Source: Psammoneis japonica (Eukaryota). From it: 64,000 bases of DNA. Shown in pieces: positions 13,624-53,149 of this stretch. Every line of letters starts with the position of its first letter. Within the stretch, counting starts at the first letter, position 1. Position numbers and translations under genes: made by a program. The stretch lies in the NCBI GenBank assembly GCA_008632985.1, contig QPGO01000007.1, positions 186,001 to 250,000 of the forward strand, in the 5' to 3' direction. The notes beneath the pieces are model-generated. The model was not told the origin of the DNA. It worked only from the letters and a program-made list of their open reading frames with translations, and did no database searches.

Positions 13624-13624
13624 G

Positions 13625-21150: not shown

Positions 21151-21373
21151 CGCTCGGAGTTTACCTCTAGTAGAGTTAGTCCAGAGTGCGTATGGATATT
21201 TTGCTTTTGATGCCGACTCGGAGAACGGAAGCAGCAGCGGATCTTGTCACTTGTCACTCATCATTCCCATTCTGACACCGGTATGTTGTGGGTGTTTGTT
21301 TGACAGATCACCGTAACAACCACAGCAACCACCACCACATGTCCGAACCCAAAAAGGTCTAATTGACAACACG

Positions 21374-27437: not shown

Positions 27438-30433
27438 AGCAGTTATGAGAATGATTAAGCAGTGGGTGAGGTGCAGTAATAAGAAAGCACGTTCTTCGCC
27501 ATGGTAAAAGCATGCATTTGACTATTATGTAGTACTTGAACGACGCACGCAAAATAGTGCTGAATATTCGACGTCGTGGACCCTTTCCGTGTTGACGCAT
27601 GATTGCAAAAAGTTTCGTTAGGTTTTGACTCGCGGTTGAAATTTGTACAAAATGTGAGCTGCCGAACTTTCGCGAGGAACACTGTATGCATGTTTGAATA
27701 AAACCCATCGACAATGTCCTCGTCTCAAAATCATACTACAGTGCTGTACATACATGAGCTTGGGTCGCACTGTGCGCCATGAACGGTGGCGTTGAGCATC
27801 AGCAACGAAATGGAAGATATAAACATTTTTTGACACCACCAACACTTTCAAAACACTTGTGGCTAAACCAGTCTAGCCAGAGACCACTCACCACAACAAG
27901 ATGGAGTGGCGCACCCAAGAATCTCGTGCGCGCCACCATCGTCCCAGTTTGCCTCACCTCCCATCTGCTTCACCTGCGCCAGAGTGCACCACTTTGACAC
28001 CTCTTGGACCACTTTGGTTGAAGCATCACCTGATTCCAAAGACAGGATCTTTGCTTTGGACTTTGAAGCTGGGTCATGAACCTTTTTGCTTCTGTCAGGG
28101 GGCTGGCCTCTGTTCACGCAGCCAAACAAAAACAAACAAAAACAATGTGGCGCAAGCCCATCTTGTGTGCAATTTCCTGATGTCATCATTCTTCTCCTGT
28201 GACTTTGCTTTTGAGGCTGGAAGCAGCTCTTGCAGCTTGGCTTTCATTTCTTCCTTCTTGTTTGCATCTTCCAAGCACTGCAGCTGCTCTCAAGGCTCTC
28301 AACCTTGCACCACATGGGGAGCAAACAACCCCGGCAAGTTCTTCAGTTTGGTCTGTTCACACAGTGTGTTCACACAATTCTGGACTGAGCCCCTGTTGCT
28401 CCAACTGTGTTGAGATGATGTGCTGCCATTTTGGTGCTTGGCCCTGCCACTGCTCCAGCATCTTTTTTCACCTCTCTCTCAATGTCATGTCATCAGCGGC
28501 AGGGCCCCAACTTTTCTTTTGACTGTCACCCAAGTCTCAGCCAAGATGTGCAGAAGTGAGAGGCCATGGTTTTTGCACCCCATCCTTTGCTGCCTTGTGC
28601 AGTGCTGCAACTTCTGGGTTGTCAGGGGCACACAATGTTTTTTTTTTAGAGAAAAAGTCAGTCACAACAGAGAGCTTTGTTTTTTTCACATCTTCCTGCA
28701 TTTTGGGAGGCTTCAAAGGTGGCGCCGTGGTTGATCTTTGAAAGGGAAATGACTGTGCCAAATCTCAGTGGTGTCCTGCATCAAAACCAAAATTGCTCCT
28801 GTGTGTGACATGCAATTGCCTTAATGTTTGACAGCAGTCCCATCATCAGTCATGAGGAAATGTGTTTTTTGAGGGACAAAAAATGCCAACAACATGGAAT
28901 TTTGAAGTCACACAATTTTTTCCCTGGCCAGTGCAATGAGATCTTTCATTTGCATGCACCAAAAGGGCAAGAAAATGGAACATTGAAGCTTTCCATGTCT
29001 GCATTTTTGGCTCTGCCTTGAATTGCATCTGGCTCCATGTGGTCTTGTGTGCTGCCATGCATTTCATTGAGGTGTGGTGCTGCTGCACAGCAGGAGGCGA
29101 GTCGAGTTGTCACAACATGGGGCAAGCACTTTTGGTGCCATGCAGGTGTGCAGCAGTGAGTGCTTTGCCATGCATGGGTTTGTGAAGCAACACATTTGCT
29201 GCAGACCCCATGTCAACTTGTTTGTTGTCATCATTGTGCTGACTTTATGAACATGGCTGGAGAGCAGCTGTGGATGAGGAAAAACAAGAAGAAGCGAGAG
29301 TGCACACATGCTGCTTGTGTTCTTTTTGCTGTGTTTCTCATGCAATTTCCATGCTTTGCTTTCAGCAGCTTCCACTGTGCTGGACTGAACTCTCCCCAGA
29401 GAATGGTGCAGAACCAACAAACTGTGCAATTCAAAAACAGTCAGAGCCAGCTGTCATGAGCATGTGCACCATCTTCTTAGAGTCTTTCAAATGCAGTGCT
29501 GAAAAACAAACAAAACATGAAGCACTTCACCTTAGAAAGCAGCAGCAGCAATGTCAAGTGGAACAAGATTCTTCTCTGTCCGTCTGTCCACAATTCAGTT
29601 TTTGGCAGTTTGCCACATGTGGCTGACAGTGCAAAGTTGGTGTGTGGGCCCATCATTTTTCAATGCACCTGCAACCGAGTCATTTCAGTGCTGTCTGCAG
29701 CAGCACACATTGAAGAAATGACATTGCACAAATGCACCTTGCTTCTTTTGTGTCTTTGCAAGATGCTGATGCTGGGGGCACTTTGCTCTTGAGCACAGAA
29801 GTCTTGTGGCTCATGTTGCAAACAAGCTCAATGTCACCAGCTGGCATCCATGCACCCCTTTGTGGCATTCTTCAACCAGGTCTCTTTTCCTTGCTCATTT
29901 TCCATGCTTGCATTTGTTGCTGGCTTCTGTCATGCCTGACTGACCATCTTTTCCCCAGAGTGTGATCATGCAGAGCTGGTGTGAGCTGTGCAACTCAAGA
30001 ACAGCATGGTCAATGGCCAACTGCATGTGTGCACACATCCTGAAAATTTGCAAAGGGGCAGGGAGGCATTCAGGGTCCTCAAGACATCAGCTCTGGTGGT
30101 GGACGCAGGGGATGGCTTGCAGCTTAACAACAGTCCAGTGTGTGGCCTGGGGGGGCTCCTCTTCATGGGGATCGATGTCCCCACACCATTCACGGGGCTG
30201 GGCTCCAGTGATGATTTGCTGAACGGAACGGAACAATTCTGTTTGTTTCTTGCTCGTTCCAATGCTTCCTTTTGACGCCAACTGTGATGAGGCCGGCCAT
30301 CCAGCAGTTCCTCCCAGCCAGACAGAAGAAGAAGAGAAAAGGAAAAGGAAGGAAAAAACAAACATTGGTGAAGGTTTGAAAGGGTGCGCTGCAGTGCCGC
30401 AGTGCGTGCAGCAGTGAAGACGGACGTAGACAG

Positions 30434-31382
30434 GTGCAGACGCGCCACGTGGAATTTGGTGCGAAGTGTCGTGCGTTCACGTGCGCAGAAGGATGTGGAT
30501 CGCCAACGGCTGGAATGAAGCAGCACACCACACAGCAGCGAGTGCAGCTCTGTCATCACGGCGCTAGAATGGCGGAGGACAACATCGTTGCGTCTGGCAA
30601 AGCAGAGGATGCAGCAGCTCCGGAAGTCATGGCAGAACTCACGGGCGCCAAAGGCACGGCGGCAGCTGCCATGACTGCACTTGGCACCGAGGGAAGTGCC
30701 GAGGGTGTGTCCGTCGAGTCCGAACGCGCAAGGATGTTGGAGAAGCCGGCGCAGTCGCAAACTGAAAAGAGTGAGAAAGCCGTGCCGCCGGAGCCAACCT
30801 TTCAAATTTGTGGTTGGAATGAAGCACAGCAGCTGGGTTGCACCGCCGAGCAGCTCCTCAAGGCCGGTTGCAAGATCAAGTTGGTGGGTGATCAGGCCAC
30901 CTTTGTGAAACCGGAGGTCCCACCTTTTTGCAGCGGCAAAAGCGAGGAGGCAGCCAAGCCCGCGGCCAAAGTGGTCGCGAAAGCAACGGCGGAAGAGGAA
31001 GAAGAAGGAAAGCAATTTCCGGACCCCAACGATCCGTCATTCGACTGGGGAATGGGTGTTGCGGCACGAAAAATCCGATGAATTCCAGGAGTCCATGTGC
31101 CTGATGAAGGATGCGCCGAATGATCCCGACCTCTGGTTCCCCGTGCTGGGAGAACTGGGGTGCATCAGGAGCGACCCTGAAGCCGTCGCGAATGCTCACG
31201 GCGAACACTGCAAGTGGGTGTGGAGGTGCCACACGGAAGTCGGCGAGAGGGGCATCCCAGACTCGATGCCAAAGAGCAACAAAGTGTTCAAGACCACCGT
31301 CGAGGCTTTCGAAGCGGGGTGGTCGCTCGCACTGGTCTGTCTCGTGAAGAGAGCAAGCACAGAAGTGTGCACATTTGGATGA
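30434..31382 (+). pseudogene. Degenerate unknown ORF(s), possibly the N-terminal part of the SET gene
   Basis: Overlapping ORFs 30434..31081 and 31056..31382 with coding-like A/E/K-rich content, directly upstream of the SET ORF. Confidence 0.45.
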
Positions 31383-31405
31383 GGCGCCGTGTCACTTAAC
31401 CTGCG

Positions 31406-32026
31406 TTGTTTTGCCTCGAAAAGTCCATTCGCTCCGCAGGCCCCAAGGAGGTGGAGGTGGGCGAGCTACACGTGTTGCAATGGAGGGGCGCAGGCATTGG
31501 TTTTTTTGCCTTGCGCCAGTTCCAGAAAGGCAGCACGGTTGGAATCTATGTGGGCCCCAGGGTGCCCGGTGCGACAAGGAGCCACTCGTGGCACGACCAC
31601 GACAGCAAGTTTGGAGAAGACCACAGCGTGTGCTGCTCCACCATCCGTGACAGCGAGGGCCGCTGCATCACAGTGGAGCCAAAACCGCTTGATTTCAGCG
31701 GTCCAGGGAACAAGAATTCCCATCCACTCTGCCTCGGAATGCACTGCGTGAACGATGCCACCGAGTCGTTCAAGGACAAGAAGAAGATCAAGGCAAGCCA
31801 ACACGCGGACAACAACTGCGAGTTCTACAATGACGGGTGCTTGGCAGTCACGAAGCGAATCATGCCCGGGGAGGAATTTCTCTGCAGATGCAACTTGGAC
31901 GAATCGGAGAAGAAGAAGAAGAAGAGGAAGGTGACGTCGGGTGCCATGAATCGGAAGAAGAAATCGCGTCTGCTCCCCAAGTCGGGGGGGAGAAGCTCTG
32001 CGTCTGGCAAAACGTTTCCCGTGTAG
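31406..32026 (+). pseudogene. SET-domain protein (lysine methyltransferase-like), Tyr-eroded
   Basis: GAGIGFFALRQFQKGSTVGIYVG...GMHCVNDA...NNCEF...AVTKRIMPGEEFLCRCN matches SET motifs GxGxFA, YxG, NH/ND, ELxxxY. Poly-K NLS-like tail. Confidence 0.82.
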
Positions 32027-32248
32027 TGTGCTCTGTAAATTAGCAGCACAGTGTGTTGGTGTTTTTCAGCGAAACTGCAGCATTAGTTGGAAAGGCGTAG
32101 CCCCAGTTGTGGTTCGAAAAATGGGAACGAGGAAGAACAGAAAGTCGGTAAATTTACACAAATCCAGTGAATTAGCAGGCACCTGCACAGTCGCCTGAGT
32201 GCAGAAAGTCAGCAAATTTACGCAAATTTAGCAAGTTATTTTGTGCTG

Positions 32249-33694
32249 TCACAGTCGCCTGAGAATGGTCTCTTCCTCTAGAGAAAGGGGGATTGAATTG
32301 TTGTTCTTGCCCACTGCAGCACTCTTCAGGTAGAGAGACACACAGAAGAACTCGTCGTTTGAGTTTGTCCTGCTGGAGATGCAGTGGCACTTGGTGGGGT
32401 TAAAAATGATGACATCACCAAGCCGGAGTGCAACGGAGATGCCTTCGGCAGGGAAGCAGAAGTGCGCCACAATCCCGTCATTCATGGTGCAGCTGCCGGA
32501 TGGAGGGACTCCCACCACGGTGACTGCTGACAGGAAGAAGTCCTGGTCCCGATGGGCATTGAGGAAGACATTGCGCCCAGCCGCCAGAGAGGAGAAAATG
32601 CCATCTGACCGTGCCAGGGATTTCCAGTTGTGAAACTTTCTGACACGAGCAACACCCTTGAGGATGGCACAGTCCACGCACTCATTGACAAGGTGCTCCA
32701 TGCGTGAAAGAAGTCTGGTGAGGTGGTGAGTGTGTTGGTCGGCTGTGCCAGGCTGCTTGCAAGAAATTCGAGCATCCCTCGTGGCAGCCAGGCCAATCGT
32801 GGAACACTTGCTCCTGTCTGTCTCCATGAAGGTAACGCGTTGTTTGCCGCGCACGGTGGACTGGGCGGTGCAGCATTCTAGTGCTTCGAGCGCTCGGCAC
32901 TGAGCAACTAGTTCTGCTGGGTTGGGGGAGCTGAACACCACAGCAGAACGCGGCAGCAGGGTGCAGGTGTTGTCGCAGCGGCAACCGTCCAAGCCAAAGA
33001 AAGGCTTCAGATCGAGCACAGGGTCACAGACGACCAGAGGAGCCAATTCGGCAAAGTCAATGTCAGCAAGACAAGGTGGTGCAGGCTGAGTGTAGTCCCC
33101 GTTATAAACTAGAGTGCGGTTGGCTGCGCAGTGTACGGAGAGACTCTCAGTGGCACACGGTGCGAGTGGAACGAGGCGAGTGATCTTGGATGTTTTCCCA
33201 CTGGCGCGGCTGCGGATTCGCCTGCGGCTGCAGTGGGCCTTGCGAAGTGGCGGTTGAGCCCTCAACACGTTCTCGTTTGTCCTGGTGCGCATTGATGATG
33301 CGGTGTTCGCAGAGAACGTGTGTGCGAACTTGCCGGCAAATGTTCCGCTGCTTGACACTGTCACTGTCGTCTCAACAGTGCCCAAAGCAGAACTCTGTCG
33401 ACAGGGACCGGCGGACTCCAGGGGAGTGGGGTCAAAACCCAATCGAGAGATGTGTCTGCTTTCCGTTGCCTCAAGAGCACCCAAAGCAAAACTCTGTTGA
33501 CAGGGACCGGCAGACTCCAGGGGAGTGGGGTCGAAACCTGGTCGCGAGAAGCACTTGCTTGTTGTCGGGCTGCAAGCTGCACGTCCCAAACCCCCACACT
33601 GTCGAGACCGGCTGTAACTCGATCGCGACAAGTGCTTGTCGTTGGCAGGATGACGCAGCGAGGCATGAGGCAGTTGCGACATGGTGTGTCTCAA
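32249..33694 (-). pseudogene. TET/JBP-like 2OG-Fe(II) dioxygenase
   Basis: C-terminal double-stranded beta-helix motifs: NVFLNAHRDQDF (HxD), FCFPAEGISVALRLGDVIIFN, KCHCIS (distal His), CVSLYLK. The true start is uncertain. Confidence 0.7.
33381..33550. repeat. 99-bp-period tandem duplication (33 codons) in the 5' part of the dioxygenase ORF
   Basis: CCCAAAGCA...CAGGGACCGGC.GACTCCAGGGGAGTGGGGTC at 33381 and 33480. Confidence 0.85.
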
Positions 33695-34129
33695 TTTGAA
33701 ATGTGTTTCAAAATGTGATGACGGAAGTGTTGTCGCGTTGTTTTTGTCTCCGCGGAGGGAGGATCATCCCACGGCAATCTCAGTGCGAGTTCTCGCGTAG
33801 AAGTGCGTTGCGTGCCGTGCCAGCTCATGCGTTTGAATTGCACGGACATGCAAGCACGGCAACGGTGAGAAGCAGGCCGAGATTCAAAACAAATTTTACC
33901 GCCTAAAGGCGTCTTGTCATTTCAACGCGTCTGCACATCTGTTTAAAATGACTTCATACGTCGCTCCATGTGCAGGTAGAGGCAGCACGTCGCGTTTGAA
34001 AATTTCGCGCGCGGAGAGGGCGCGACGGCAATTTTGCGCATTCTGCGCACGTCACAGTTTGGTTTGGAAACGCGACGACTGGTCGAACCCACTGCAAGCA
34101 AGGTTGATGTTGCCACAAGGTTGGATGCG

Positions 34130-35071
34130 ATGAACCATCGTTGCAGAAGTGTCAGGGAGTTTCATCTTCAAACGGCTCCGGACTCCGCGTTCCAGAGCAG
34201 GCGTGTCTCCAGAGACGGAAGCGGATCTTCGCACGGCGGCGAAGTTGGCTTCGCTTTGAGCAGTGAAGTGTTTTTGAACGAACGCCTTCTTGGCGTGAAT
34301 CACACCTGCGATGCATCTGTCGACATGGGCGGGGGAGTTGCCGGACCCAGCATCGGGCTCAAGTTACTTTGTCGCCGTTGCACCGTGGTGAGCATCGAGG
34401 CCGACCACGATCATCACCAAGAGGCTGTACGTTGGGCTCATCGTGCTGGCCTTCGCTCGAACGGCGGGTTAGAGTTGATCAACAAGTCATTCTTGGATGA
34501 GAGGCTGGCTCCTTTGTGGAAAAAGAAAGGACTCAAGGTGTTCTTCAACAACTGCAACTCCCGCATGGTCGACGACAAGAACACACAGCAGAAGGCAGAG
34601 GCGATGCTTTCGAAGTTGTGTCGTGCTGGGACCGTGGTGGTGGCGCTAGATCCGCTGTTCGCATCGTACGCGGGAGAGTGGATGTGCGAGTCCTTCACGG
34701 CGGATTGCCATGATGGCGACTTTTTGTGGCACAGCGGAGATGTGAAACATCTCGTCTTCCACAAGTGCACCAAGAAAGAGGAGACTTCTCAGTCAACCAG
34801 CCAGCACATGCGACGTCCCACTCCGACACACTTGGAACGGAAGTATTTGCCCGTCGCGAAATGGCCAATTTTGCTCAAGAACTCAACTGAACTGTTTTTT
34901 TACTGTCACTGTGCTGGACGTCACACGCTAGTTACTCTGCTCAATTCGCCATTGCTTCGCGGTAACGTAAAGTTGTCGTCGGAGATGGGCAAAAAAAAAA
35001 AACAACTCAGTCTTCGTCGCTGTCCTGAAGCACCAAGTCGTCATCGACGTTCAGGTCAACTTCGTAGTTGA
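34130..35071 (+). pseudogene. DOT1-like SAM-dependent methyltransferase
   Basis: HGGEV...DASVDMGGGVA...VVSIEAD...LINKSFLD...KVFFNNC...LCRAGTVVVALDPL parallels DOT1 YGE / DLGxG / GIE / GDF / FxNN / GxRIVS. The 3' end may be extended by loss of a stop codon. Confidence 0.62.
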
Positions 35072-35879
35072 GCTCGACATCATCGTCGGCCTCTTCTCCA
35101 GCTTCTTCTGCCGGAGCTCCAATGAGACGACAGAGTTCCACAGGCAACGACCCCTCGTAGAAGCAACTGTGAAGCAAGTTCTTGTTTTGGGCGCACCAAC
35201 CGATGTGAAACTGACCACCTTCCTTCTGAAGCTCGGTGAGCGCCGCCTCGTTGCCGATCACTTCGGACCAAACAGCATCCTTCATCCAGAAGAAGTCGTC
35301 TTCAACGAAGACCTCGGTGTTGTTCTCAGGGTCATCGTTCAGCTGCTTTGCAATGTGCTTCCCGAGGCCGCGCACTTTAGCATCGGTTGGGACTTCTTCG
35401 AGGAAGATGAAGAAGAGACGCACGGCGCATTTCTTGGCGTTCGTCTGCAACTCGCCCTCATGAACCCACCTGCCAGCGTAAGGGTGGAATCCGACTTGAA
35501 CCGCCCACGGAGTCCTGCTGCGAAGGTTGTCAAACAGAACCTTCTCCGACCAAACATTGGTTGAAAGGGGATTCTTGGCTTGGAGACGAAAAACGACGCC
35601 TTTCTTGCGGCCGACAGTGACGGTGGCGCAGCGCAGGAGGGCGTCCTTGTCGGAATGGCTGCCATCGTCAGAACTGGCGGATTTGGAAAGCTTGAACCCG
35701 TGCTTGGCAAGGTGGTCTTCCGGTTTAAGGTCGTCGTCGGTCAAGCCGTTGGTCTTGCGGGGCGGACTTAGTTTCTTCAACAGAGCATCAGAAAACTTCG
35801 TCTTTGCCTTCTTCTGTTTGGTTTCGGCGACTTTGGCTTTCGCAGCCGGGGAGGTCGTTGTGTTTCTTTTGCGTGCCAT
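35007..35879 (-). CDS. Unknown protein (basic N-terminus, acidic C-terminus) within the Helitron block
   Basis: Coding-like ORF from MARKRNTTTSP (ATG 35879), ~290 aa, Tyr-poor. Confidence 0.6.
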   Translation of the reverse strand: MARKRNTTTSPAAKAKVAETKQKKAKTKFSDALLKKLSPPRKTNGLTDDDLKPEDHLAKHGFKLSKSASSDDGSHSDKDALLRCATVTVGRKKGVVFRLQAKNPLSTNVWSEKVLFDNLRSRTPWAVQVGFHPYAGRWVHEGELQTNAKKCAVRLFFIFLEEVPTDAKVRGLGKHIAKQLNDDPENNTEVFVEDDFFWMKDAVWSEVIGNEAALTELQKEGGQFHIGWCAQNKNLLHSCFYEGSLPVELCRLIGAPAEEAGEEADDDVELNYEVDLNVDDDLVLQDSDED

Positions 35880-36684
35880 CAAAACAGTTGGAGAGAAACC
35901 ATGGGAACAAAAAGTGCGATCGTTCAGAAGTGCCAAGAAAGACCCAGTGGAGCTGTGCACATCACACCAAGGAGAACTGGCAACGTCAGCAACCAGATTC
36001 AAACACGTCGAACTGCAACAAGGTGACCTTCCAGGTGTCAGCACTTGCAAGTGGTGCATGGATTCAATTTGAACAAAACAGATGCAAGGATTGGAGCACG
36101 CAAAGTCGTACCAAGTTTGCTGAAAATGCGTAAAATCACGTGCAATTCCATCCGTGCTTCGTGTGCATTTCAGCCGTTGCTGCCGCGCGGCCATCGCGCA
36201 CGAAATCTAGTCGCCAAACGGTCGACGCCATCGCTGTCACCACATGCTGTGCCGGCAGTTAGCCAAGGTGGGCCCATCACCCATTTGGAGGATTCGCGCG
36301 CACTTTGGAAACACGAATGACGTCAATCGTGTTGTCATTGCCACACGACTAACTCAACTGCCCCGCCACTCGTCAAAGCATGATTCTACGGAATTTGCGT
36401 AAAGCTGCGCCCACCACCAAGATTGCCGAAACAACTTGAACAAGATCCGAATCTTACCCCATGGAATGTTCAGAGCAGATGGTCGAAACAACTTGAACAA
36501 GATCCAAATCTTGTCCCATGGGATGTTCAACGTCGACGAAACTAAGCAGGATGTCGCACGTCTGGTGCGAAGAAGGACGTGGGAGGAACGCACACGTCAC
36601 TCTTCCGTCAAGGTGAAAGAGGCACACTTTCGTCTCACTTTTTTGTGACAGAACCTTTGCGCAAAGGGAAACAAAAAGCATCCA

Positions 36685-37385
36685 ACTATGGTGATTGGGC
36701 CACACCGATCGTAGTTCTCAGTTCTCACAGTGACCTGGTGACGCAGGTTGTGAGATGACGCACAAGCTCAGCTGCGGTGACTGGACGACACCAGTCGCAG
36801 CTCTCACAGAGACCTGATCGCACAGGTTGTGAGAACACGACACAACGCTGCGGTGATCGGATGGCACCGACGCAGTTCGTCAAGCAACCAATTCACTTGG
36901 CTGCGGTGACTGGACGACACCAGTCACAGCTCTCACAGCGACCTGATTGCACAGGTTGTGAGCAAACAACACAGCGCTGCACCTCGTAACGCAGGTTGTG
37001 AGATGACGCACAAGCTCAGCTGCGGTGACTGGATGACACCAGTCGCAGCTCTCACAGAGACCTGATCGCACAGGTTGTGAGAACACGACACAACACTGCG
37101 GTGATCGGGCAGCACCGACGCAGTTCGTCAAGCAACTGATCAACTCGGCTGCGGTGACTGGACAGCACCAGTCGCAGCACTCACAGTGACCTGATTGCAC
37201 AGGTTGTGAGAAGACGACACAGCGCTGCGGTGAACGGGCAGCACCGACGCGGTTCGTTGATCAACCAGACAGAACCACTGCAGTGACTGGACGACACCAG
37301 TCGCAGTGCTGCAGGTGGCGAGAAAACACACATCGCTGTGGTGATTGGATAGCACCGATCGCAGCTTCACGGTGATCGCACCGAA
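36685..37385. repeat. Higher-order tandem array of hairpin-forming units upstream of Rep
   Basis: Core GCTGCGGTGACTGGACGACACCAGTCGCAGC or variants at ~36690, 36771, 36847, 36900, 37019, 37096, 37148, 37224, 37278 and 37335; 248-bp superperiod (36743/36991). Confidence 0.9.
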
Positions 37386-37451
37386 AAAACAACTGTTTTT
37401 GCTGAGCAACTTCTTGAAATTTGTCGAGTTAAAGTGTCAGCTTAAATTAAA

Positions 37452-40400
37452 ATGGACGAGGCCAACTCCCGTGTTTGTGGTGCAATCAATGGAAAGTTTG
37501 AGATGCTTTGTCTGCACAGAGATGGAGAATTTAGACCACACGTGTGTTCAGTCTGTGACATTCTGCTGAAACCTAGAGAAGTTTGCTGCTTGCCGCTTGA
37601 AACATTGGAATCAGCAAGAAACTCACTCACCCCTTCAGACTGGAACAGCGCATCTGATCGTCTCAAGTCCTGCCACACTGTAGAGCATGAAGATGCTGAT
37701 TGGATCAAAGACCTGCTGCTTTCTCCCCGTGCCCAACACGCAGCACAGGAAGACAGACGACGCGTCGACAGATTCACTTGCTGCATCAAATGCCGAAGAA
37801 GCCTGGGAAGAGCCGTCACGCCAATGCACGCGACAGCGAACAACTGCTGTTTCGGTGCCCCGCCGCACGAACTGTTGTCTCTAACCGAAGTAGAGTTGGC
37901 AATGCTCACACCAGTGAAAACATGCGGATGCTGCTTCAGTTGCCTTGGCGGCAAACAGAAGAAGCTTCAGGGAAGTCTGACACGCTACAAAGTCAAGATG
38001 CAAAGCATCGCAAGAACTGTTGTGCACTTCGACGTGCTGAATTTACATCAGAATGTGATTGTGCTGATGACTGGAAAGATGACTCCGGAGCAAAGACAAC
38101 TTGTGCGTTCAAAGAACAGAATTAGGACACACTGCATGCCAAGGGCGATGGAATGGCTGTTGTGCCACAACCAAGAGTGGGTGCACCAACAGACAAATCT
38201 AGACAAAGTCAGGCGTAATCTGCGAAATCCCGCACTTGTCGACAGCACCGGCGAAGAAGAAGGAGAAAATACGAACATTGAGACCTCAGAGTCATTTCAC
38301 ACTTGCTTTCCTGATGGAACCATGTCTCCTGCGACCGGTGGTCAGCGCAACCTGGACTGCTTCAAAGAACTTGTGCACGAAGCCACTGCCAACGGATTTG
38401 ACTTAGAGGCACAAGCACAGTTGTCTGAAGAATCTGCGAGTGATTTCAAAGGCAACAACTTCATTGACGCGTGTCTGCTGCAGTTTCCTTTTGGCAGAGG
38501 AGGAATCAATGAGATGAGAATGAAGAAAGACGGAAGTCTCACAGACAGCACCAACCTTGCACACTGTGCCGACCACTTGGCACGGATTTCCCAGCCTCAC
38601 TTCCACGAGCAGCTCTTCGTGTTAACATGCTGCAACTTGACAATGAAGCAAAGGATGCTGCAGAGCGCAGGGTGGAAAGTCAGGGACAAGAATCAGGCTG
38701 CACAGTTTGCAAACGAGCTGACAGTGGACGATGTGGACAGAGCTGTTTGTGATCGCAACTTGGGCGAGAGAAGAGATTGTGGACTTGGGCACCACTTTTT
38801 GCGCACACTCGATGTTGCATCTGCGTCTCTGCCACACAGCAACGAAGCAGCAAAGAAAATGAGGAGAAACGCCGAAACTTGTCAGCATCATTTTGGTCAG
38901 GGTGGCATTTTCTTAACCGTCAGTCCGGACGATGCAAATTCGTTTCTTGTGCAACTGCACTCGGGTGTCATCCTGGACCCAAACGAAGACGTGACACAAC
39001 TGACGGACGAAATTCTTGCTGGCAGGGCCAAGCAACGTAATGAACTGCGTCTAAAGTTTCCCGGTCTAACAGCCTTTGTATTCGAGTGCTTGTTTGACAT
39101 TGCAACAGAAGAGGCAGTGGGTTGGGATCTGAGTGCCAACCAACCAAGAGAAAACTTTAACTTCTACATTGGCAGGCCAGCCGCATTTTTAGCCACAGTT
39201 GAGGAGCAGGGACATCTGACAGTGCACGGACACATGCAGATCTGGTTCGCATCGATCAACAATGCAAGAGAGAAACTGCATTTGCCAATGAGACAGATCC
39301 GACACGAAGGTGCTGAGCACCTCACCAATGCAGTTCAGAAGATCTGCAGCACGGAGTTAATCTGCAGTGAGGACTTCAGCACTAACGCGTTGCGTGAAGC
39401 ATTCGATCATGACTGTGCAGCACCAAAAATGTGTCGCACCTCTCCAAAAGCAGCAGACGACCAACAGCTGAGAAACCTGAGGCACAAAGACGGCCAGCAG
39501 TCGAAGAACGGAATGTTTGCTTGTTGTCGTCACTGCACCAAGCACTGGACAAACGTCGAGTTTGTAGAAAGCTTTTTACAGTCACGGCACCGTGCACCTG
39601 GCCTGACTCGCCATCCAGATGACCTTGCAAAGCGACTAAAAGCAATGTGTGTACAATGCCAGCGAAGTGGTCCGCAAGGGACAACAGAGGCACACATGCC
39701 GGACGCAGCTTACAACCATCACATGCACGTTACGAAGTCGTGTTTTCCCAAATGCGCAGAGTTACGTAAAATGCGTAAAAAAACCCACACGAGGAACTGG
39801 ACGTGCTGTCAAGGAAAAGGAAACGAGAGGAGCTCAAACTGGGTGACTGCCGTCACAGGCAACCAGCTGCTTCGTGTCCAAATGATTCAGTGAGGAATGC
39901 AGATGACACTCAGATAAAGTGGTTCAGCTGGGATGGGACTTTTACGCATCGGCACGTGAAGGAAGTTGTTCCGAAGAGGAGAAAGTGCGATGCTTTTCAA
40001 AACGTGTCATGCCCTGCAACAAGCAGATCAAAACTGACATGCAACACAAACATTGCTTCATTGATGCCTGGACCGTCTGCTCAATGCACGATTGAGCACA
40101 TCCTAAAAGACACCCAGAAAGATGACACTGCATCGCACGATGAAGTGCTTCGAACTGCGAACAGGACAGCGACGGAATTACGGAAACACGCATCTGATGC
40201 ATCGGAAGCAATCAGACATCTCATGTGGGGTGCTTGCTCGCATGACAAGACGAACATCATTGGACCACCACTTGCATCTTACATGACAAGGAACGGAAGC
40301 CGTTTCATCAAATCTCATTTGACCGCATGGTGCCCCTTGAAAGACATTGTCAGCACACTAGAAAGAGACGAAGTGTCTGTGACTGTAGCCCATTTTGGCG

Positions 40401-43101
40401 ATGCACCATTCTTCCAATGCCAGGCCTTGCACTGCCCATGTCGTCCAACAGCACTGGAGAATCTCAGTCCGTTTGCGTTTTTCAGTGAGTGCGAAGTTCT
40501 TCGCAACACAAGGAAAAACGAATGCGGCATGATGATGTTCGACAACAGAGCACACAGGCACCCGTCTTGTGGTTCAACGAAGAACAAGTTTCTTCAAGGT
40601 GTCAGACAGCGACAGCAACCGCAATTGTCAAAAGCACTTCAGCATGATTTTCCTGATGCAGCCAAGTTTGGTGGTTGCCTTGTAAATCCGCAGCAACCAA
40701 CAACACCAGACAAAGAATTGCGCTGCAAGTTGGCATTGGCCTTGTTTGCGCCTTACAGAACAATGACGGAACTCAAACCAATGACCCACACATGCCTGCG
40801 TGAATTCCAACTCTCCGCAGCAGCCGGTGTATTACAGAGGAAAACTTGAACTTCTTGCAGAACCTGCAGGATGCCAAGTCCAACTGCCTTCGTCTCAAAA
40901 GTGCATCTGACGATCTGCAAAGAAAGACGGAGCAATTTAGACCTGCTGACGTTGCGTTTGACTGTCACGAAAGTGACGAGGAAGAAGGTCTTTCAGGCGC
41001 CGTTCAGGGTCAACTGCTGGATGCACTCTTGGAAGAAATGGCAGAGCAGCCAGAAGACGATGACATTGGGTTGAGTGACCAAGCAGTTGTTCCTGCGCAT
41101 TTGAGTGGCAAACGTGCAAGACAGAAAGGTTCACACATGGGTGGTTGCAAATGCTTGGCAGACATGCACACTGACCCACCAAACGAGGAAAGCCAGGTCA
41201 ATGAACGACAACTTTTTGAGAATCTAGAGGGCGGCGATGACACCGACGAGGAAGACCAGAATGAAGGAGTGCAACAACACATCCACAGCAGACCACTGTC
41301 AAGAGACGACATTGTTCGAGTGACACTGACTAGAACGCAAAGAACAAGAAGGTCGTTTGAGGACATGACAGGTTTGGAAGAACACATCGATGTGCGTCAA
41401 GCAAACGGATCTGCAGTGAGTGTCGTAGACTGGGCTAGGAAAGCAAGACTGGACAGGCAACAGCAGCGTGCCTTTGAAATTCTGGCAGGAACCTTTGTGC
41501 TCACTTGCTGTCAAGACGCTCTTCAAGACGAGACGTCACGCAATGGACTCAACAGGAGAAATGGCAGACACGAATTCGCAACAAACCTTCGCCGATTGAA
41601 GAAACTCGTGGAAGTGCAAAGACACAGAACGTTGCAACTTGTGTGTTTTTTACATGGTGCAGGTGGAAGTGGCAAATCAACCACAATGGACCTCGTCGTG
41701 GAATGCGGAAGAGAGTGTTGCTTGCTCATTGAGCAGCCGTTCACAACAAGCACAATCAGAATGACTGCACTGACCGGAGTGGCTGCCACCATTCTCAAAG
41801 GGGGCACAATCCACCGAGTTGCACACCTCATGAGAAGAAAGCAAATGACCGAAGAGCAAATTGAAGCATGGTCAGACACGAGACTTTTGGTGGCAGACGA
41901 GATTTCTTTTGCAAGCAAGAGAGAACTAGAAAAACTCCATGAGAATTTGACAGTGTTGAAGAGCGAATCAAGCAAGCCATGCGGTGGCATGAACATTGTT
42001 TTCGCAGGTGACCTCAGGCAACTAGAACCAGTCGGAAAAGGAGTGAAACCACCACACAAAGATGCATGTCCCGAGTTTCACGAGTGGATCAACTGCTGCA
42101 CAGAACTTCGTGGTGCACACAGGTTTAAAGACGATCCATCATGGGGAAAACTGCTCAAGAGATTCCGCGCTGGCAAGATTACAGTTGACGATGTGGAGTG
42201 CATCAACGAACAAGCAGTTCAGAACAAAGATGATCTGCCCAGTGACCTCCGCTGTGCTGCATGCGCAAATGAGGACAGAGATGCAATTGACACTGGCCCA
42301 TTCGAAAAAAGAGCAAAAACACTGCATGGAAGAGATGGAGACGTCCTTGACTCAATGTTGATTTTCAGTGACGACTTGCAGGCACAGAATGGCACGAGAC
42401 TCTGCCAACCATTTCCGGTTTACAACAGCTTCTGGAACAACTGTGGTGAAGGAGACGTTGTCATGCAATCAGGAAGAATGGATCCAGTCTTACGAATTTA
42501 CAGAGGATGCAGAGTCATGACACCTTTCAACGAAAATGTGGCAAACGGTCAAGCAAACGGAACGCAAGCCACTGTTGACAAGGTCGTTCTCAAACCAGGA
42601 CAGGAACCAAGACTGGTGACTTTAGACAACAACATTGGCATTCCTGCTGCACTTGCCAGTCAGGTAGACCACGTTGCATTGGAACACTGCAACAAAAGCA
42701 TCGACCCCGCGAAGTTTTTAGTTGAGCCAAAAACAAACACTTTCAGGGCTTGCATCGCCAAGCCCAGCCCAACTTTAGAAGAAGGTGACAAACAAAGGCA
42801 GACTTTCCAACTGAAGGCAACCCAGCTGCCGTTTGTCATCAACAATGCCACTGCAGGGCACAAACTGCAAGGGAGTGGAGTCCCGCAGTTGTTTGTACAC
42901 TCTTGGAGCTACACTCAGAATTGGGTGCATGTTGTGCTCTCCAGAGTAAAGACCAGAGAAGGGCTGTTCATGCGAAAGCCACCAAGCAAGGACCTGCGAA
43001 AATGCAAGGTCCCAGAAGGCTGTGAAGCCTTGACAAGACTCATGAAGGAGAGAAGCGCCACGCATTTTTCTCAGCAACAGTGCGCAGAAATGTCAACGTA
43101 G
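37452..43101 (+). pseudogene. Helitron-like RepHel (HUH endonuclease plus PIF1 helicase), two frameshifts
   Basis: ORFs 37452..39893, 39803..40849 and 40846..43101. Rep motifs IFLTVSPDD, VEEQGHLTVHGHMQIW (HUH), CNTNI...QCTIEHILK. PIF1 motifs GAGGSGKST, ALTGVAA, GGTIH, ADEISF, FAGDLRQLEPV, HRF, ANGT, HKLQG, VVLSRV. Confidence 0.93.
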
Positions 43102-43247
43102 TGCGCAAACATTAGATTGGGATGCTCAACCACTGCACAACTGTTTGGCGACCCCAACCATAAAAATGCGGAAATTTCGTAAAACAAAGTGTTTCAATTA
43201 GATCAGCACATTGCGTAAAAATCCACACATGCGTCACACAACGTCGA

Positions 43248-43718
43248 ATGGATTTTAACCAACAAACCAAGAAACGCGAACGCAACCGTCACAGAAAACG
43301 TAGCAACAGAGAAAACATGGATTTGCAGCAACAAACAAAGAAGGCAGACGAGCCAAAGAAAACTGGTGAGGACAAGAAAAAGGTGCAGACATGTGCAGAA
43401 CTTCTTCAGTCATTGATGAACAAGGAAGACGAAGAGGAGATTACCTTGGAAGAAGCAAGAGCGGCGTTTGACCTTGCTTCGGGAAATTTTGATGTCACTT
43501 CTGTGCTTGTGCAAGACAACACGACAGTGGACAGTCATCATGTGGAAACAACGGTCATGCCCAAGGATGATTCAACCATGGAGGAGCTAAAGGCAGCATG
43601 TGCAGCGGCGATTCCACAGCGGTCGGGGAGATTTTTCACCGAGGAGGAGATGGCGGAGCAGGAGAAGGAGCAAGCAAAGTCCCTTCAGAAGAAGCATGGC
43701 CAGAAAGAATGGAATTGA
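43248..43718 (+). CDS. Small charged hypothetical protein downstream of the helicase
   Basis: 156-aa K/E-rich ORF with no Tyr; lies inside the mutated block. Confidence 0.4.
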   Translation: MDFNQQTKKRERNRHRKRSNRENMDLQQQTKKADEPKKTGEDKKKVQTCAELLQSLMNKEDEEEITLEEARAAFDLASGNFDVTSVLVQDNTTVDSHHVETTVMPKDDSTMEELKAACAAAIPQRSGRFFTEEEMAEQEKEQAKSLQKKHGQKEWN

Positions 43719-44220
43719 GCAAATTGCAAATGACTGTTCAGCAAAGACAACCGCATCAATGCATAAAATACATGCACATGGACTTTCACTCAAGCCGCCG
43801 CGGATTGAGCATGGCCGTGAATGAGGGCCAACTGTTTGGCAAAGAAACTGCAACAATGCGCAAATTTCGCACATTTCCACACTCACTTAATCCAACGCAG
43901 CTTGCCTTAGACAACATCAACATGCACAACTAGACAACATCAACACACACAGACAGCCTCATGAAACCTCACAGAAGACAGAACGGTCAGAAGCAAAACA
44001 ACCAGCACCACGCACTAACGCATGTTAGTCATGTCGCGTGGGTCGCGCAAAAGTGCGCGCCGAAATAACCGTTATGTGTCACAATTAATTCGAACGCCCG
44101 GCGCAAAATGCAGCAAAATGATTGGTGCAGGCAATCGTCATGGCTCTATTTTCTGATAGTAGCGAGGGCGGCAATCCAAAATCTTTCGGTTTCAGACTTC
44201 GATCTAGAGAGTTCACCTAA

Positions 44221-44970: not shown

Positions 44971-45126
44971 TTATGACCATAATTTCGGTAACTACGACTA
45001 CTAGCGGCCATCTCGGTGGGATCATCAGAGCTGATGAAATTTCGACGCCGACTATGATTATGACCATAATGTCGGTAACTACGACTACTAGCGGCCATGT
45101 CGGTGGGATCATCAGAGCTGATGAAA
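44971..45126. repeat. 87-bp-period tandem duplication
   Basis: TTATGACCATAAT.TCGGTAACTACGACTACTAGCGGCCAT.TCGGTGGGATCATCAGAGCTGATGAAA at 44971 and 45058. Confidence 0.9.
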
Positions 45127-45226
45127 CACAGTGCATCAAAATTAGAGCAGTTTAGATTACACATACGTACACCATAAAATCTATATGCAAAATGCTGTAA
45201 AAGTAGAAAGAGCGTGAAGTGATCCA

Positions 45227-46585
45227 TCAGAAAGAAATTCCAATATCAAACGGAACAAGAACCTCTGACGAGCGATTCATGATTCTGTTTTCGACGGTTT
45301 CACCGCGATTGATGGAGTAAGTTCGGCGTGAGAAGCCGCCCCATTTCGTAAAGGTGATGACATTCACACGAACCATTTCCGTGCCGTCGTCATTGGTAAA
45401 ACATTGAACAGACGGCGTTACATCAATGCGCCTTGCCTTTTTCTTGTCTTTCGGAGGATACTTACGCAAAATGCCTTCGAGCGCAATCTTGTTACAAACG
45501 AGTTTGACATCATTGTAATTCGCGTGCCACCATAGGTAGAACTGGTTACCCATTATGGAAAGGGTGACAAGCTCCATGTACCCTTTTGGAGTATCCTCCA
45601 CGATTAGTTCATCTAAGTAATTCGGGCAACCTTTCCGCAAGGTACTGCAATAGTTGAAATAGTCTTTCAAAGTGGCCAACTTATCTTCTTCTTGATTTCT
45701 CACGTACAGAATCGGATAACCACCAAGTCCATCAAACTTGTAAACATATTCGAGAACATCTCCCTCGGCAAGAGAGATGTGATCCATCACGTCCATGTAC
45801 ACGGCTACATCAAAGTCGCCTTCCTCAAGTGTTGGATTAAAGTTTTCAAAGTCCACCAGGTGTTCTGTAAAAGGCAAATCCCGCCAAAGAGCAGCCATGG
45901 CTGTAGTAGAAGCCTCACACACTCTAGTTACATCCACCTGCTCGGAGCAGTCCCATTTGTCACATGGCTTGAATGGGGATTGCGCATCATTGGTAGCATT
46001 ATCGTCCGGGACACTGGTAGCGGCTGTGCTATTGTCGCCTTCCTCGTTTACATGTGTGGCGAACTTAGTTGCGAGGCACGCAACCCGGGGATGACCGGTG
46101 ACCGTAACTGTAAAAATGCAAGAGTCTGTATGTGTGTTTGTGCCGATAGCCTCACAAGTGACTTGCGTGGGAGAGGTGGTTGCGAATAAAGATCCACTTG
46201 GGGGAGTACAAGTCCAGTCTTGAATGTCAGAAAGCCTGTTGAGTTTGACATGATCATCATAATTCACTGCAGTAAGAACACTGTCTTCAGATTGATCGAC
46301 TACAATATCCTCACACTTGATCATACAATCTTCGTAACAAGGGAACCCTTCGATTGGCCAGGGTTCGCAGATTCCGTCACCGCAGCCGGGGCAGGGGCGA
46401 TCATCAACGTCCATCTTTTTCTTAGAAATGAGCCTTGTCACGCACACCCCACCTTTCGATTTATCAGACCTGTGGCACGGTTTCGATGGACCCAGCCTTC
46501 TGTCACCACGGAGGAAAGTACGAGGCAAATCACCATGGTGACCCATTGTCACTCCCTCCGAAGCAGAAGCAAGACGATGGGACAA
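45227..46585 (-). CDS. HYR-like domain plus conserved unknown C-terminal domain (paralog A)
   Basis: CEDIVV...CTPPSGSLF...TQVTCEA...SCIFTVTV (HYR-like). C-terminal ~240 aa highly similar to 48196..49398. Start uncertain. Confidence 0.75.
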   Translation of the reverse strand: MSHRLASASEGVTMGHHGDLPRTFLRGDRRLGPSKPCHRSDKSKGGVCVTRLISKKKMDVDDRPCPGCGDGICEPWPIEGFPCYEDCMIKCEDIVVDQSEDSVLTAVNYDDHVKLNRLSDIQDWTCTPPSGSLFATTSPTQVTCEAIGTNTHTDSCIFTVTVTGHPRVACLATKFATHVNEEGDNSTAATSVPDDNATNDAQSPFKPCDKWDCSEQVDVTRVCEASTTAMAALWRDLPFTEHLVDFENFNPTLEEGDFDVAVYMDVMDHISLAEGDVLEYVYKFDGLGGYPILYVRNQEEDKLATLKDYFNYCSTLRKGCPNYLDELIVEDTPKGYMELVTLSIMGNQFYLWWHANYNDVKLVCNKIALEGILRKYPPKDKKKARRIDVTPSVQCFTNDDGTEMVRVNVITFTKWGGFSRRTYSINRGETVENRIMNRSSEVLVPFDIGISF

Positions 46586-48195
46586 GTCGGAGGTTGTGGA
46601 AAAAGCATGGTTGCGTTTTTGGGTCTGTGGATGATCCTTAATCAGATTCCAGAGTCACAAAAAGGTGTAAGTGTAAGCTAAAAGACAGTACGAAGGACGG
46701 GTGGGGATTCTCGCCGTCGTCATCAAATCTCCTTCATTTTGTGTCGTTTGATGTTATGCACATACAAGTTCAAAGTTTCCAAGAAGTTGTTGAACTGTGC
46801 CGTGTTTTTGTGTTGTGGAGTCGCGCGCATTTTGTCCAGGGGCCCCCGTTCCCAATCTGCCGTACTTTCTACGTAAACAGCGCGGGGCCCCACATCTGTC
46901 TTTCCCCCTGAAATCATACAGTACTTGTAACCACACCGTAAGAGCCATAAAATCATGGGCGGGAGTTTATTTCCTCCCCTTCTCGCCTTTCCGTGCGTAG
47001 TACAATAGTGAATCGACTCACTCGACTCAAATTGAGAACGCATGGAATTTTTTCAGTTTCCAGCCCGACACCTGGGACCGAGCGAGGACCAACACGGGGT
47101 GCGCCTCAAGGCAACAGCATCGGTGGAGGGAACGCCGGTCTCGAGAACAAGAATGGATGCTTGTGACAATGGCTGCGAGTAGCACCACCACGATCCATGA
47201 CAGTCATGTTACGCACCTTATCAAGGTTTGTATGTCCTCGAGGAGGGTGAAGTTTGAGACTATCCTCGGTTTCTGTGGCGGCAGAAACAAGGGTCAGCGC
47301 CCATCACGACATTATTACCGTCGCCGCCGTGCACGTTCATACATCCCATTGGTCCATGATACTCACCCGAGAAGCCTCGTCGGATACAGAGGATGACCAG
47401 AGTGATTTTGAATGGGAAGATAACCATCGTTCATTTGTGTTCTTATCGATTGTGTTTTTTGAGAAAATGCGCGGGAAACCTTGCCGGAAGGTCTGTGTTC
47501 GGGTTTGGTTGACACGAAGGTGTCACCAATGAGAAGCCCTATGTACCGAGTTTAGGACAACCAAGGATATGGGGAAGGACTACAACATGCCTGTCCATTC
47601 TGAAGAAACGGATTGTCACTACACAGAATCACGTCGGAATAGCGTGACCTTGGAGTTTTCCCCCGTTAGGGCCATTTTAGAAATTGACCGAATGGGTAGC
47701 TATCCCGATGAAACACGGTAAGAGATCTAGATAATTAACAATGACAAAACTTGTGCTTTGAAACACAATAACTCCATTGACCATACTATGTTGATTGGAG
47801 GTGTTCATCCGACGTTTGACTGGAGAATACATGCAACCACTTACGTAGAGGCATAAGTCGTACAGTTACAAAATGGTGGAATTGCGCAGGTAGCTCGGCA
47901 AACACGTACAGACCAGGCAAAGTGATCATCAGCATTCGCCTCACGTTACAGTCTACTTTTTCCCTCCTCCAACGCCAACAGAGCGAGAGTGTCGGACAAT
48001 TATGTTCTCTCTTGCTCGTTTCGATTCTTTTCGGCTTTCGGCACCTCCTATGATTACGACTATTGACCCTATCGGTAGGATCACCAGAGTTGACGAAACA
48101 CAGTGCGTCTCTATTGGATCAGTTAACATAACACATCTGTAAACCATATTTCTTTATGTAAAATGCAGTCAATAGAAAGAGCGTGTAGTGATACA

Positions 48196-49398
48196 TTAGA
48201 AAGCGATGCCAATATCAAACGGAACAAGAACCTCTGACGAGCGATTCATGATTCTGTTTTCGACGGTTTCACCGCGATTGATGGAGTAAGTTCGGCGTGA
48301 GAAGCCGCCCCATTTCGTAAAGGTAATGACATTCACACGAACCATTTCCGTGCCGTCGTCATCGGTAAAACATTGAACTGATGGCGTTACATCAATGCGC
48401 CTTGCCTCTTCCATGTCTTCTTCTGTAAATGTGTCACCCATGTCGTATTCATCATCCGTCGGAGGATACTGTTGCAAAATGTTCTCGAGCGTCTCCTTGT
48501 TGCACACGAATTCATAATCATTGTAATTCGAGTGCCACCATAAGTAGAATTGACTTCCCATTACGGAAAGTGTGACAAGCTCCATGTATCCCTTTGGAGT
48601 ATCCCCCACGAGTAGTTCATCCAAGTAAGTCGGGCAGCCTGTCCAGGCACTGCAAGTTCTATTGTTGAAATAGTCTTGCGAAGTGGCAAATGGATCCTCG
48701 TCTTGATTTCTCACGTATAGAATCGGATAACCACCCATTCCATCAAACTTGTACACATAGTCGAGAACATCTCCCTCGGCAAGAGAAATGTGATCCATCA
48801 CGTCCATGAACACGGCGACATCAAAGTCGCCGTCCTCAAGTGTTGGATTGAAGTTTTCAAAGTCCACCAGGTGTTCTGGAAAAGGCAAATCCCGCAAAAG
48901 AGCAGCCATGGCTGTTGTAGAAGCCTCACATACAGCAGTTACATCTACCTGCTCGGAGCAGTCCCATTCATGTGGCTCGTAAGGGAATTGCGTACTACTA
49001 TTAGTACTATCATCTGGGACCGGGGTAGCAGTCGAGTTATCGATGTCGACAGGAATTTCCGTTGCTGTGCTATTGCTAGTTCCATCATCCGGGACCGGGG
49101 TAGTAGTCGAGTTATCTTTATCGACATGTCCTTCCGTTGACGTGCTATTGTTTCCCACCAGATTAGTCGATGACTTGTCCCCATCTTTATCAGAAAGAGT
49201 CATAGGAAGAACCGTAGCTAGAACAACAATCACAAACAGGAGCAGCAGCGCAGCTCCAATCCAGAAATTGCGATGAGAAGGTTGGTTCGTCGCGCTCTTG
49301 TCGCCATCTTGAGGCGGGGCACTTTCTTGTTTCTCAGGTGCACTCTCAACGTCAACCTCTATGTCGCTTTCCTCGCTGTGTGGTTTTATCTTCATCAT
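48196..49398 (-). CDS. Type II membrane protein with the same unknown C-terminal domain (paralog B)
   Basis: Single TM (FWIGAALLLLFVIVVLATVL), S/T/N-rich repeated stalk, shared domain YVYKFDGMGGYPILYVR...QFYLWWH.NYND...FTKWGGF. Confidence 0.85.
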   Translation of the reverse strand: MMKIKPHSEESDIEVDVESAPEKQESAPPQDGDKSATNQPSHRNFWIGAALLLLFVIVVLATVLPMTLSDKDGDKSSTNLVGNNSTSTEGHVDKDNSTTTPVPDDGTSNSTATEIPVDIDNSTATPVPDDSTNSSTQFPYEPHEWDCSEQVDVTAVCEASTTAMAALLRDLPFPEHLVDFENFNPTLEDGDFDVAVFMDVMDHISLAEGDVLDYVYKFDGMGGYPILYVRNQDEDPFATSQDYFNNRTCSAWTGCPTYLDELLVGDTPKGYMELVTLSVMGSQFYLWWHSNYNDYEFVCNKETLENILQQYPPTDDEYDMGDTFTEEDMEEARRIDVTPSVQCFTDDDGTEMVRVNVITFTKWGGFSRRTYSINRGETVENRIMNRSSEVLVPFDIGIAF

Positions 49399-49760
49399 GG
49401 TATTTTCAAGCTGTTGTGAACAGTATGCAGTTAATCAATGTCAGAATATGAAGCGAGACACGCGATGGCCATCACAGTCTTCACTCTTCAGTCACGCGAA
49501 CTTTTCAACGCTTCAACGGGTGCGAGTTGAGTTGACACGTTTCAAGTTTCAAGGTACAGTAAAGTTAGTCGAACTAGTCAATGATTGCGAGTTTGCCACG
49601 AATGACCTTTCAGAAAGTGACAAAATGTTTCCTAAGTAAGTCGTGCGGTAGGACAGCCGGTATTCGATCGTACAAAATTGCCGCCACCTCGAAAATCTGC
49701 CATCAAAAAGATCTCTGGATCTCACAATTTTGATTTTGAAACAGCAACAAAAGCTTCATA

Positions 49761-53143: not shown

Positions 53144-53149
53144 TTTTCC

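Follow-up and report, generated by a model that had tools for sequence, protein, structure and literature searches.

We analyzed a 64,000-nucleotide stretch of contig QPGO01000007.1 (positions 186,001 to 250,000; hereafter the window), which contains a multi-copy Helitron-like element of ~13.9 kb (30287-44220, plus strand) with a gene for a Rep-helicase protein. The transposable elements (TEs) examined are eroded by a context-strict mutator that changes TpA to TpG or CpA after insertion, on both strands and copy by copy, regardless of reading frame and TE class. The Rep protein has indeed lost its presumably catalytic tyrosines, but this loss is unselective, follows from the genetic code, and involves no separate mechanism. 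The erosion is probably best explained by an A-to-G (equivalently T-to-C) TpA mutator confined to silenced, probably methylated chromatin.

The limits of the Helitron were set by homology to 35 fetched stretches of other copies and by its end sequences; the window element lacks the final ~20 bases present in most other copies. Its Rep-helicase gene (37446-43098, plus strand), identified by tblastn with P0001 and by matches to the Pfam domains Helitron_like_N, DUF6570, and PIF1, holds the HUH motif, the YxxxY motif 3 (mutated in the copies), and a PIF1 helicase. The gene is split by frameshifts near 39783 and 40830 into three reading-frame pieces with 46-47% identity to an intact homolog of 1866 aa, and it shows one-base differences from the contigs of run X1. 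It encodes 8 tyrosines, compared with ~60 in an intact homolog. The HUH motif (His-Gly-His, 39225-39233) is intact, and its histidines are invariant in our alignment of Rep homologs (A1) and retained in 304 of 305 cells among the Helitron copies. By contrast, the codons of motif 3 (40082-40108) are caa tgc acg att gag cac atc cta aaa, giving QCTIEHILK where xYxxKYxxK would be expected. TGC (Cys) stands at the first Tyr position (40085-40087), whose context A-TA-C belongs to the most exposed class, and CAC (His) at the second (40097-40099), where TAC is left in 1 of 30 copies. A TG/CA switch site spanning a codon boundary (40093-40094) gives Glu in the window and Lys in homologs and CA-type copies.

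Both motif-3 positions are Tyr in all 25 intact homologs of alignment A1, which was made from 36 Rep homologs after leaving out 11 that were short, near-duplicate, or low in Tyr; the pattern Y..[KR]Y..K is present in 31 of the 36. Within the genome the Rep region has 41 matches, 33 of them near full length, and we fetched 30 of the 41. In these copies the first position is Cys in 18, His in 12, and Tyr in none, and the second is His in 19, Cys in 10, and Tyr in 1. The original prediction, made from the window alone, had read Cys at 40085 and His at 40097 as replacing the two motif-3 tyrosines, and the copies and homologs agree with it. Helraiser no longer transposed when Y727 or Y731 was mutated (PMC4778049). 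Both proteins have the HUH motif followed by two tyrosines four residues apart and then the PIF1 helicase, while the window element differs in being 13.9 kb long with extra open reading frames (ORFs). The motif-3 tyrosines are therefore presumed equivalents of Y727 and Y731 on account of their order, spacing, and invariance; a search of PDB with profile A1 matched Helraiser in the helicase only and left the Rep domain without an alignment.

Comparison of the Helitron copies revealed the direction of change. We used 8971 masked columns from 17 copies, 4 part-length copies of the 21 being left out. Both TG and CA occur among the copies at 332 dinucleotide sites. At 293 of these CG is found in at most one copy, and the states add up to 378 TA, 2361 TG, 2151 CA, and 17 CG, compared with 877 CG expected if both bases changed independently. 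The near absence of CG indicates that the starting state was TA and that a site is no longer a target after either base has changed. The remaining 39 sites have mostly a CG majority, as in ordinary CpG decay, and were set aside. More than half (51%) of the pairwise mismatches sit in 6.5% of the columns. The way in which pairwise agreement is computed fixes its mean at the expected value, so we considered only its spread: 135 of the 136 copy pairs agree at 0.49-0.68 of the sites and one pair at 0.90. Hence, each copy was mutated on its own once it had been inserted, and the progenitor carried the tyrosines. Neighboring sites had changed on the same strand in a fraction of 0.496, with 0.492 expected (4495 neighbor pairs), showing that there are no strand-coordinated runs.

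The mutator is strong and narrow. About 77-82% of TpA sites are lost, while CpG loss is ~5% per strand, and the per-strand hazard of TpA is ~175 times that of A>G changes outside TpA and 14 times that of CpG decay. CA mutates more than 100-fold less than TA; outside TpA, A>G changes amount to 0.004-0.007 per site, with a 3' pyrimidine preferred there too. The per-strand hazards, taken from 20 Helitron, 8 Copia, and 7 fully eroded Gypsy copies, rank the contexts alike in the three families, with (A)-T-A-Y the most exposed: a 3' pyrimidine raises the hazard ~2- to 5-fold and a 5' A ~2- to 4-fold. The same signature is present in four element types, these three and the tyrosine recombinase (YR) elements, and TpA depletion in the window is accompanied by enrichment of CpA plus TpG. 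The proposed conversion of TA to TG or CA, turning Tyr into Cys or His, was thus correct in its direction, as copies and homologs both attest.

The original prediction described this erosion as a removal of catalytic tyrosines, but our data led us to reject a specific targeting of these residues. We tabulated 369 conserved positions in the 21 Helitron copies. All 9 conserved tyrosines are lost alike, with 3 of 187 cells kept and 119 Cys, 64 His, and 1 Arg in the others, whereas His, Trp, Gln, Cys, and Asp at conserved positions are kept at 0.97-1.0; conserved Ile and Val drop to ~0.5, in part through ATA and GTA codons. The loss ignores the reading frame: TAY is kept in 151 of 1176 cases in frame (0.128) and in 152 of 882 (0.172) and 46 of 611 (0.075) out of frame. 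Both motif-3 sites fit the expectation from their context, with p 0.55 and 0.18. No other amino acid than Tyr has TA in all of its codons, and the mutator prefers the context TAY; a Tyr codon therefore cannot change synonymously and becomes Cys or His. Each Rep-helicase copy has 117-158 missense changes derived from TpA; 1025 of the 2678 in all (~38%) are at Tyr. As had been proposed, the mutator itself makes no stops, since none of the sense codons becomes a stop by a single TpA change. It is not the only source of damage, however: all 21 Helitron copies also carry a stop or frameshift, although part of the indels may stem from the assembly, and CGA to TGA accounts for 10 of the 17 mapped stops.

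The affected tyrosines extend over several protein classes. The window holds a Copia long terminal repeat (LTR) retrotransposon (6977-13806, minus strand) with a 4-bp target duplication, GAGG. Its reverse transcriptase (RT) has TGT at the Tyr position of YxDD (CVDD, 8411-8413, aspartates intact), CAC at that of ALYGLK (ALHGLK, 8564-8566), and TGC at that of ITYSSVV (ITCSSVV, 8756-8758), all on the minus strand and all as predicted; among 120 Copia homologs these positions are Tyr in 112, 117, and 113, respectively, with Phe at the YxDD position in 6. In 30 Copia copies, the RT aspartates are kept in 24 and the YxDD Tyr in 2. Motif VI of the PIF1 helicase (42925-42945, plus strand) is VHVVLSR instead of YVxLSR, again as predicted, with His (CAT) at the Tyr position and the Arg kept; the position is His in 17 and Cys in 3 of 20 readable copies and Tyr in 18 of 20 pattern-matching homologs. 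The catalytic residues of RT are aspartates (PMC2850067) and that of helicase motif VI is an arginine finger (PMC4778049), so that three of the five sites originally listed as catalytic are conserved, not catalytic; the label does not suit the RT and PIF1 tyrosines.

A loss had also been suspected in YR enzymes, and it was found in a YR-like family. Tyrosine recombinases have the catalytic set R-K-H-R-W-Y, with a C-terminal Tyr. A decayed tyrosine-recombinase-like gene (2677-4130, plus strand; TGA stop at 4078) has GGC at the likely nucleophile position (4099-4101), which is not explained by one TpA step. This position is Tyr in 118 of 120 homologs, in which R, K, R, and W are likewise conserved, and at the 17 readable loci of 27 distinct ones in the genome it is His in 8, Cys in 7, Gly in 1 (the window copy), and Tyr in 1. 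By Pfam the family assignment is weak, with Phage_integrase matching only 2 of 18 members, below the cut-off, and the profile of the family matched no structure in PDB. The erosion thus reaches HUH, RT, helicase, and YR-like proteins, as originally supposed.

This erosion divides the window into blocks. Normal blocks with genes (TA observed/expected, o/e, ~0.6) alternate with TA-poor blocks of TEs (0.03-0.16), and a two-state segmentation placed the latter at 3-13617 (TA o/e 0.15), 18333-21161 (0.06; CG o/e 0.53), 23028-23932 (0.03; CG o/e 0.28), 27888-43887 with the Helitron (0.16), and 52760-55174 (0.07; CG o/e 0.48). Tyr makes up 26 of 5389 residues (0.48%) in 11 ORFs of the TE blocks, whereas the 8 host ORFs examined in the window have 82 among 2704 (3.03%), a deficit that is not due to chance (p ~2e-19). 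Cys and His are at 3.8% and 3.9% in the TE-block ORFs versus 1.6% and 3.2% in the host ORFs.

We then compared eroded and spared parts of the same elements. The 5' LTR of the window Copia element (13625-13806), which adjoins a host gene, is almost unmutated, with 14 of 15 TA-class sites kept, whereas the 3' LTR (6977-7158), which lies within the TE block, is eroded and keeps 4 of 15. The two LTRs differ 12 times, always at TA-class sites: 10 of the differences are TA to TG/CA, and the other 2 share one CA/TG site. Among nine near-identical Copia elements, the LTR is spared in 5 of 5 cases with a TA-normal outer flank and in 0 of 12 otherwise (p=1.6e-4; one shared flank was counted once, and the flank threshold of 0.35 was set after the data had been seen). 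The 3' end of the Helitron (44000-44220, plus strand) adjoins TA-normal DNA and retains 10 of 12 TA-class sites, compared with 3 of 13 further in, and Helitron ends in general follow their flanks, though less tightly, with rho values of 0.50 and 0.64 in 16 copies each. A 2.7-kb flank, 98.3-99.9% identical among the five loci that share it, still has ~101 TA, and no pair differs at more than one TA-related position; this unmutated repeat argues against repeat sensing. It is the 3' flank of Helitrons L137, L141, L142, L145, and L148, four of which are near contig ends, and has no Rfam match and no long ORF.

Gypsy elements showed a similar pattern internally. We fetched 25 of 46 matches with a query that itself carried a spared island, biasing the count: a central island is spared in 17 copies, whereas 7 show erosion along their whole length and 1 shows light erosion along its whole length. 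This least-eroded copy retains YLDD and has 3.4-4.3% Tyr in its pol frames. CpG loss in 15 copies with an island is 20 of 719 inside it versus 320 of 2379 outside, a contrast that the 7 fully eroded ones do not show (32 of 334 versus 136 of 1282), indicating that TpA editing coincides with CpG decay. Hence, exposure to the mutator depends on chromosomal position and not on repetition, and it coincides with CpG decay. In Phaeodactylum, TEs are targets of CG methylation (PMC9998398), and together with the overlap with CpG decay this makes a methylated, silenced domain the likely substrate; we consider it probable that the targeted domain is silenced, CpG-methylated chromatin, the methylation being deduced from the CpG decay. 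In copy L169 (contig C114 of genome G000) the island lies at ~1600-2400 over protease and RT; it is position-specific, has graded edges, and in 17 of the 25 copies is spared both TpA and CpG loss. An internal promoter, the last region reached by spreading, and conversion are candidate causes of such islands.

In the explanation that we favor, the mutator changes A to G (equivalently T to C) almost only in the TpA step, and best in (A)-T-A-Y. As the copies show, it hits chromosomal DNA after insertion, on either strand and in each copy alone, and a changed site leaves the target set. Silenced CpG-methylated chromatin would define the targeted domain, and the presumed HUH and recombinase nucleophiles are lost within ~130 missense changes per Rep-helicase copy. 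The favored chemistry would be adenine deamination by an enzyme of the TadA/ADAT family acting on DNA, owing to the A>G change and the preference of TadA-derived editors for YA/YAY (bioRxiv 2025.05.14.653640); we give this chemistry slightly less than an even chance. The genome has 9 matches to the deaminase family PF00383, including one ADAT2-like and one TadA-like gene, which are expected of any eukaryote and do not prove the point. That the process is a defence making silencing permanent is plausible and unproven, and on balance we lean towards it. We are more doubtful about a dedicated defence common to diatoms and rhizarians, whose adenine deaminase would be drawn to silenced DNA with CpG methylation and would edit T-A-Y on double-stranded chromosomes. 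If true, this would be an A-to-G counterpart of repeat-induced point mutation (RIP), guided by chromatin rather than homology, with a natural DNA adenine editor as its enzyme, and it would kill the mobility enzymes that depend on phosphotyrosine (HUH, recombinase) without synonymous escape.

Several observations weigh against this interpretation. No dedicated deaminase was seen among the 9 PF00383 matches, the ADAT2-like and TadA-like genes being of ordinary housekeeping types without expansion. The mutator did not keep the families from growing to 30-40 or more copies, every one of the 21 Helitron copies examined is broken in other ways too, and one eroded Helitron tract is common to two copies at different loci, which speaks against an efficient defence. 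With regard to targeting, the flank threshold of the LTR test was post hoc, the Helitron-end correlations are modest with exceptions such as L146, L151, and L162, the Gypsy query carried the island, and methylation is deduced from CpG decay. The tract in question belongs to L062 and L065, which agree at 90% of TG/CA sites over most of their length, either by gene conversion or by copying of an already eroded element.

The erosion could instead be a passive by-product of heterochromatin, arising from base modification or an error-prone repair or bypass polymerase, with no deaminase and no evolved defence. We regard this as unlikely, though a serious contender: it agrees with the coincidence of TpA loss and CpG decay, the wide expansion of the TE families, and the lack of a dedicated deaminase among the PF00383 matches, and sequence alone cannot distinguish A from T as the altered base. 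However, polymerase eta has a WA-type signature, and AA, CA, and GA change to G at only 0.004-0.005 per site, far below that level. TpA loss also far exceeds CpG loss, so that it is not a spill-over of T:G repair. N6-methyladenine of the ApT type fits poorly, because TAC is nearly as hot as TAT and because 5-methylcytosine alone is described in a model diatom (bioRxiv 2024.10.28.620566). Recognition of duplicates by homology, as in RIP but with a different chemistry, would explain why repeats are the targets, why both strands are affected, and why the dinucleotide specificity is strict. It is improbable given that identical LTRs of one element differ by position, that the 2.7-kb five-locus flank is unmutated (gene conversion could have homogenized it), that duplicated host genes of the window (74-82% identical) have a normal TA content, and that the target described in Bigelowiella natans is single-copy.

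Editing could also act on replication intermediates, in an APOBEC-like manner on cDNA or rolling-circle single strands, or reflect the element's own error-prone copying. All affected elements have mobile intermediates, and TadA-family enzymes prefer single strands. This is nevertheless highly improbable: strand-coordinated runs are absent, the signature is shared by all four element types and depends on the flank, and the two LTRs of one insertion differ, an asymmetry that already contradicts it. Hardly any credence can be given to families that naturally use Cys or His, to selection against UpA in RNA, or to a sequencing artefact. Tyr-poor homologs do exist in public assemblies (6 of ~276, possibly from the same species). 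But the copies are split between Cys and His at each site, and the loss is frame-blind and includes non-coding DNA. The least-eroded Gypsy copy still has its YLDD and 3.4-4.3% Tyr in its pol frames; homologs and least-eroded copies carrying Tyr suggest that Cys and His are not native to these positions, and had they been, the idea of Tyr loss would have been undone. As to an artefact, host genes on the same contig are normal, and the contigs of run X1, which may be the source sample, show paired differences of the same kind (T>C/G>A and C>T/A>G). GC-biased gene conversion was ranked low, as it would not be TpA-specific.

The process is real, and one of its kind has been described recently. In B. 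natans, Mettrop et al. (bioRxiv 10.64898/2026.01.13.699255) reported TpA hypermutation of integrated DNA of nucleocytoplasmic large DNA viruses and virophages; there the signature arises de novo in viral insertions at ~1000 times the background rate and only in some lines, and ADAT2 (ADAT2/3) is proposed as the enzyme. Both cases share an almost exclusive change of TpA to TpG/CpA on both strands, regional and in foreign or selfish DNA, with TpA depletion and a gain of CpA plus TpG; host genes are spared here. The differences are that B. natans is a rhizarian and the present host a stramenopile (very likely a diatom), that the targets here are multi-copy TEs of four classes eroded near saturation (~80% of sites), that the preference for a pyrimidine at +1 and an A at -2, the flank effect, and the overlap with CpG decay are resolved here, and that the mutations were observed directly in B. 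natans and are deduced from standing copies here. Our literature searches, which left most subscription papers outside their coverage, returned no report in diatoms or across TEs, and the Bigelowiella preprint was the sole match. Our data extend the process to a second lineage of the SAR group (stramenopiles, alveolates, and Rhizaria) and to all TE classes examined, and the six Tyr-poor homologs hint at a wider occurrence, unless they come from the same species.

RIP of ascomycete fungi acts before meiosis and involves the methyltransferase RID; it changes C to T, mainly CpA to TpA, makes stops, and lowers the GC content. It likewise produces transitions at a specific dinucleotide, which destroy TE copies where they are inserted and leave host genes alone, but it runs in the opposite direction; here A goes to G, TpA is removed, and stops are impossible. 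Moreover, duplication as such is insufficient here, as seen from the spared LTRs and, with the caveat of gene conversion, the spared five-copy flank. Editing of intermediates by APOBEC- or ADAR-type enzymes would be expected to leave strand-coordinated runs, unlike what we found in the 4495 neighbor pairs. TadA/ADAT-derived editors resemble the mutator in changing A to G on DNA with a YA/YAY preference (bioRxiv 2025.05.14.653640) and differ in being engineered, guide-directed, and tolerant of CA as well as TA, whereas CA lies more than 100-fold below TA here. The context, the edge sparing, and the link to CpG decay provide testable rules for an enzyme hunt in a genetically tractable group, and base editing would benefit from a DNA editor that changes A to G in nature. 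In such genomes, LTR divergence as a measure of TE age, dN/dS values, and gene predictions are distorted because long stop-free, Tyr-free ORFs look intact though they are dead.

With 24 silicon-transporter matches in its 91-Mb genome, and with Fragilaria as the named source of two Copia homologs, the host is very likely a diatom. One open frame of 1511 aa with three silicon-transporter domains is located at G000 C38:226311-230342. Host genes of the window include an amidohydrolase (21317-22687), which we take to be guanine-deaminase-like, a DUF285 plus EGF protein (17191-18141), and two sets of duplicated, TA-normal genes (45080-49434 and 50875-56759). At 28001-30000, both TA (o/e 0.04) and CG (0.1) are extremely depleted, and this is likely an older, saturated repeat.

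Further features were noted in the elements. The LTR termini of the Copia element appear to be of CG...CG type, not TG...CA, with 4-bp target duplications, and the flanks of most of the eight other copies agree. Copies L125 and L126 have a common left flank and different right flanks, L125 being without a matching target duplication, which points to a recombinant or a misassembly. The extra Helitron ORFs comprise a SET-like one (31400-32023, Pfam E 0.015), one at 32252-33763 that has no Pfam match and by its motif presumably resembles 2-oxoglutarate-Fe oxygenases, and two others (33980-35068 and 35010-36206); a tandem repeat of ~129 bp lies near 36733-37364 inside the element. A sub-terminal inverted word near both Helitron ends (GTTCCTCC / GGAGGAAC), seen at 30287-30320 of the window and at the 3' ends of copies L133-L152, recalls in our estimation the ends of Helitron2/Helentron elements. 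Finally, eroded Helitrons at L157, L158, and L164 contain short elements with inverted repeats (390-550 bp) and an insert of 2.5 kb, whose TA content is normal or partly so; these are presumably younger insertions.

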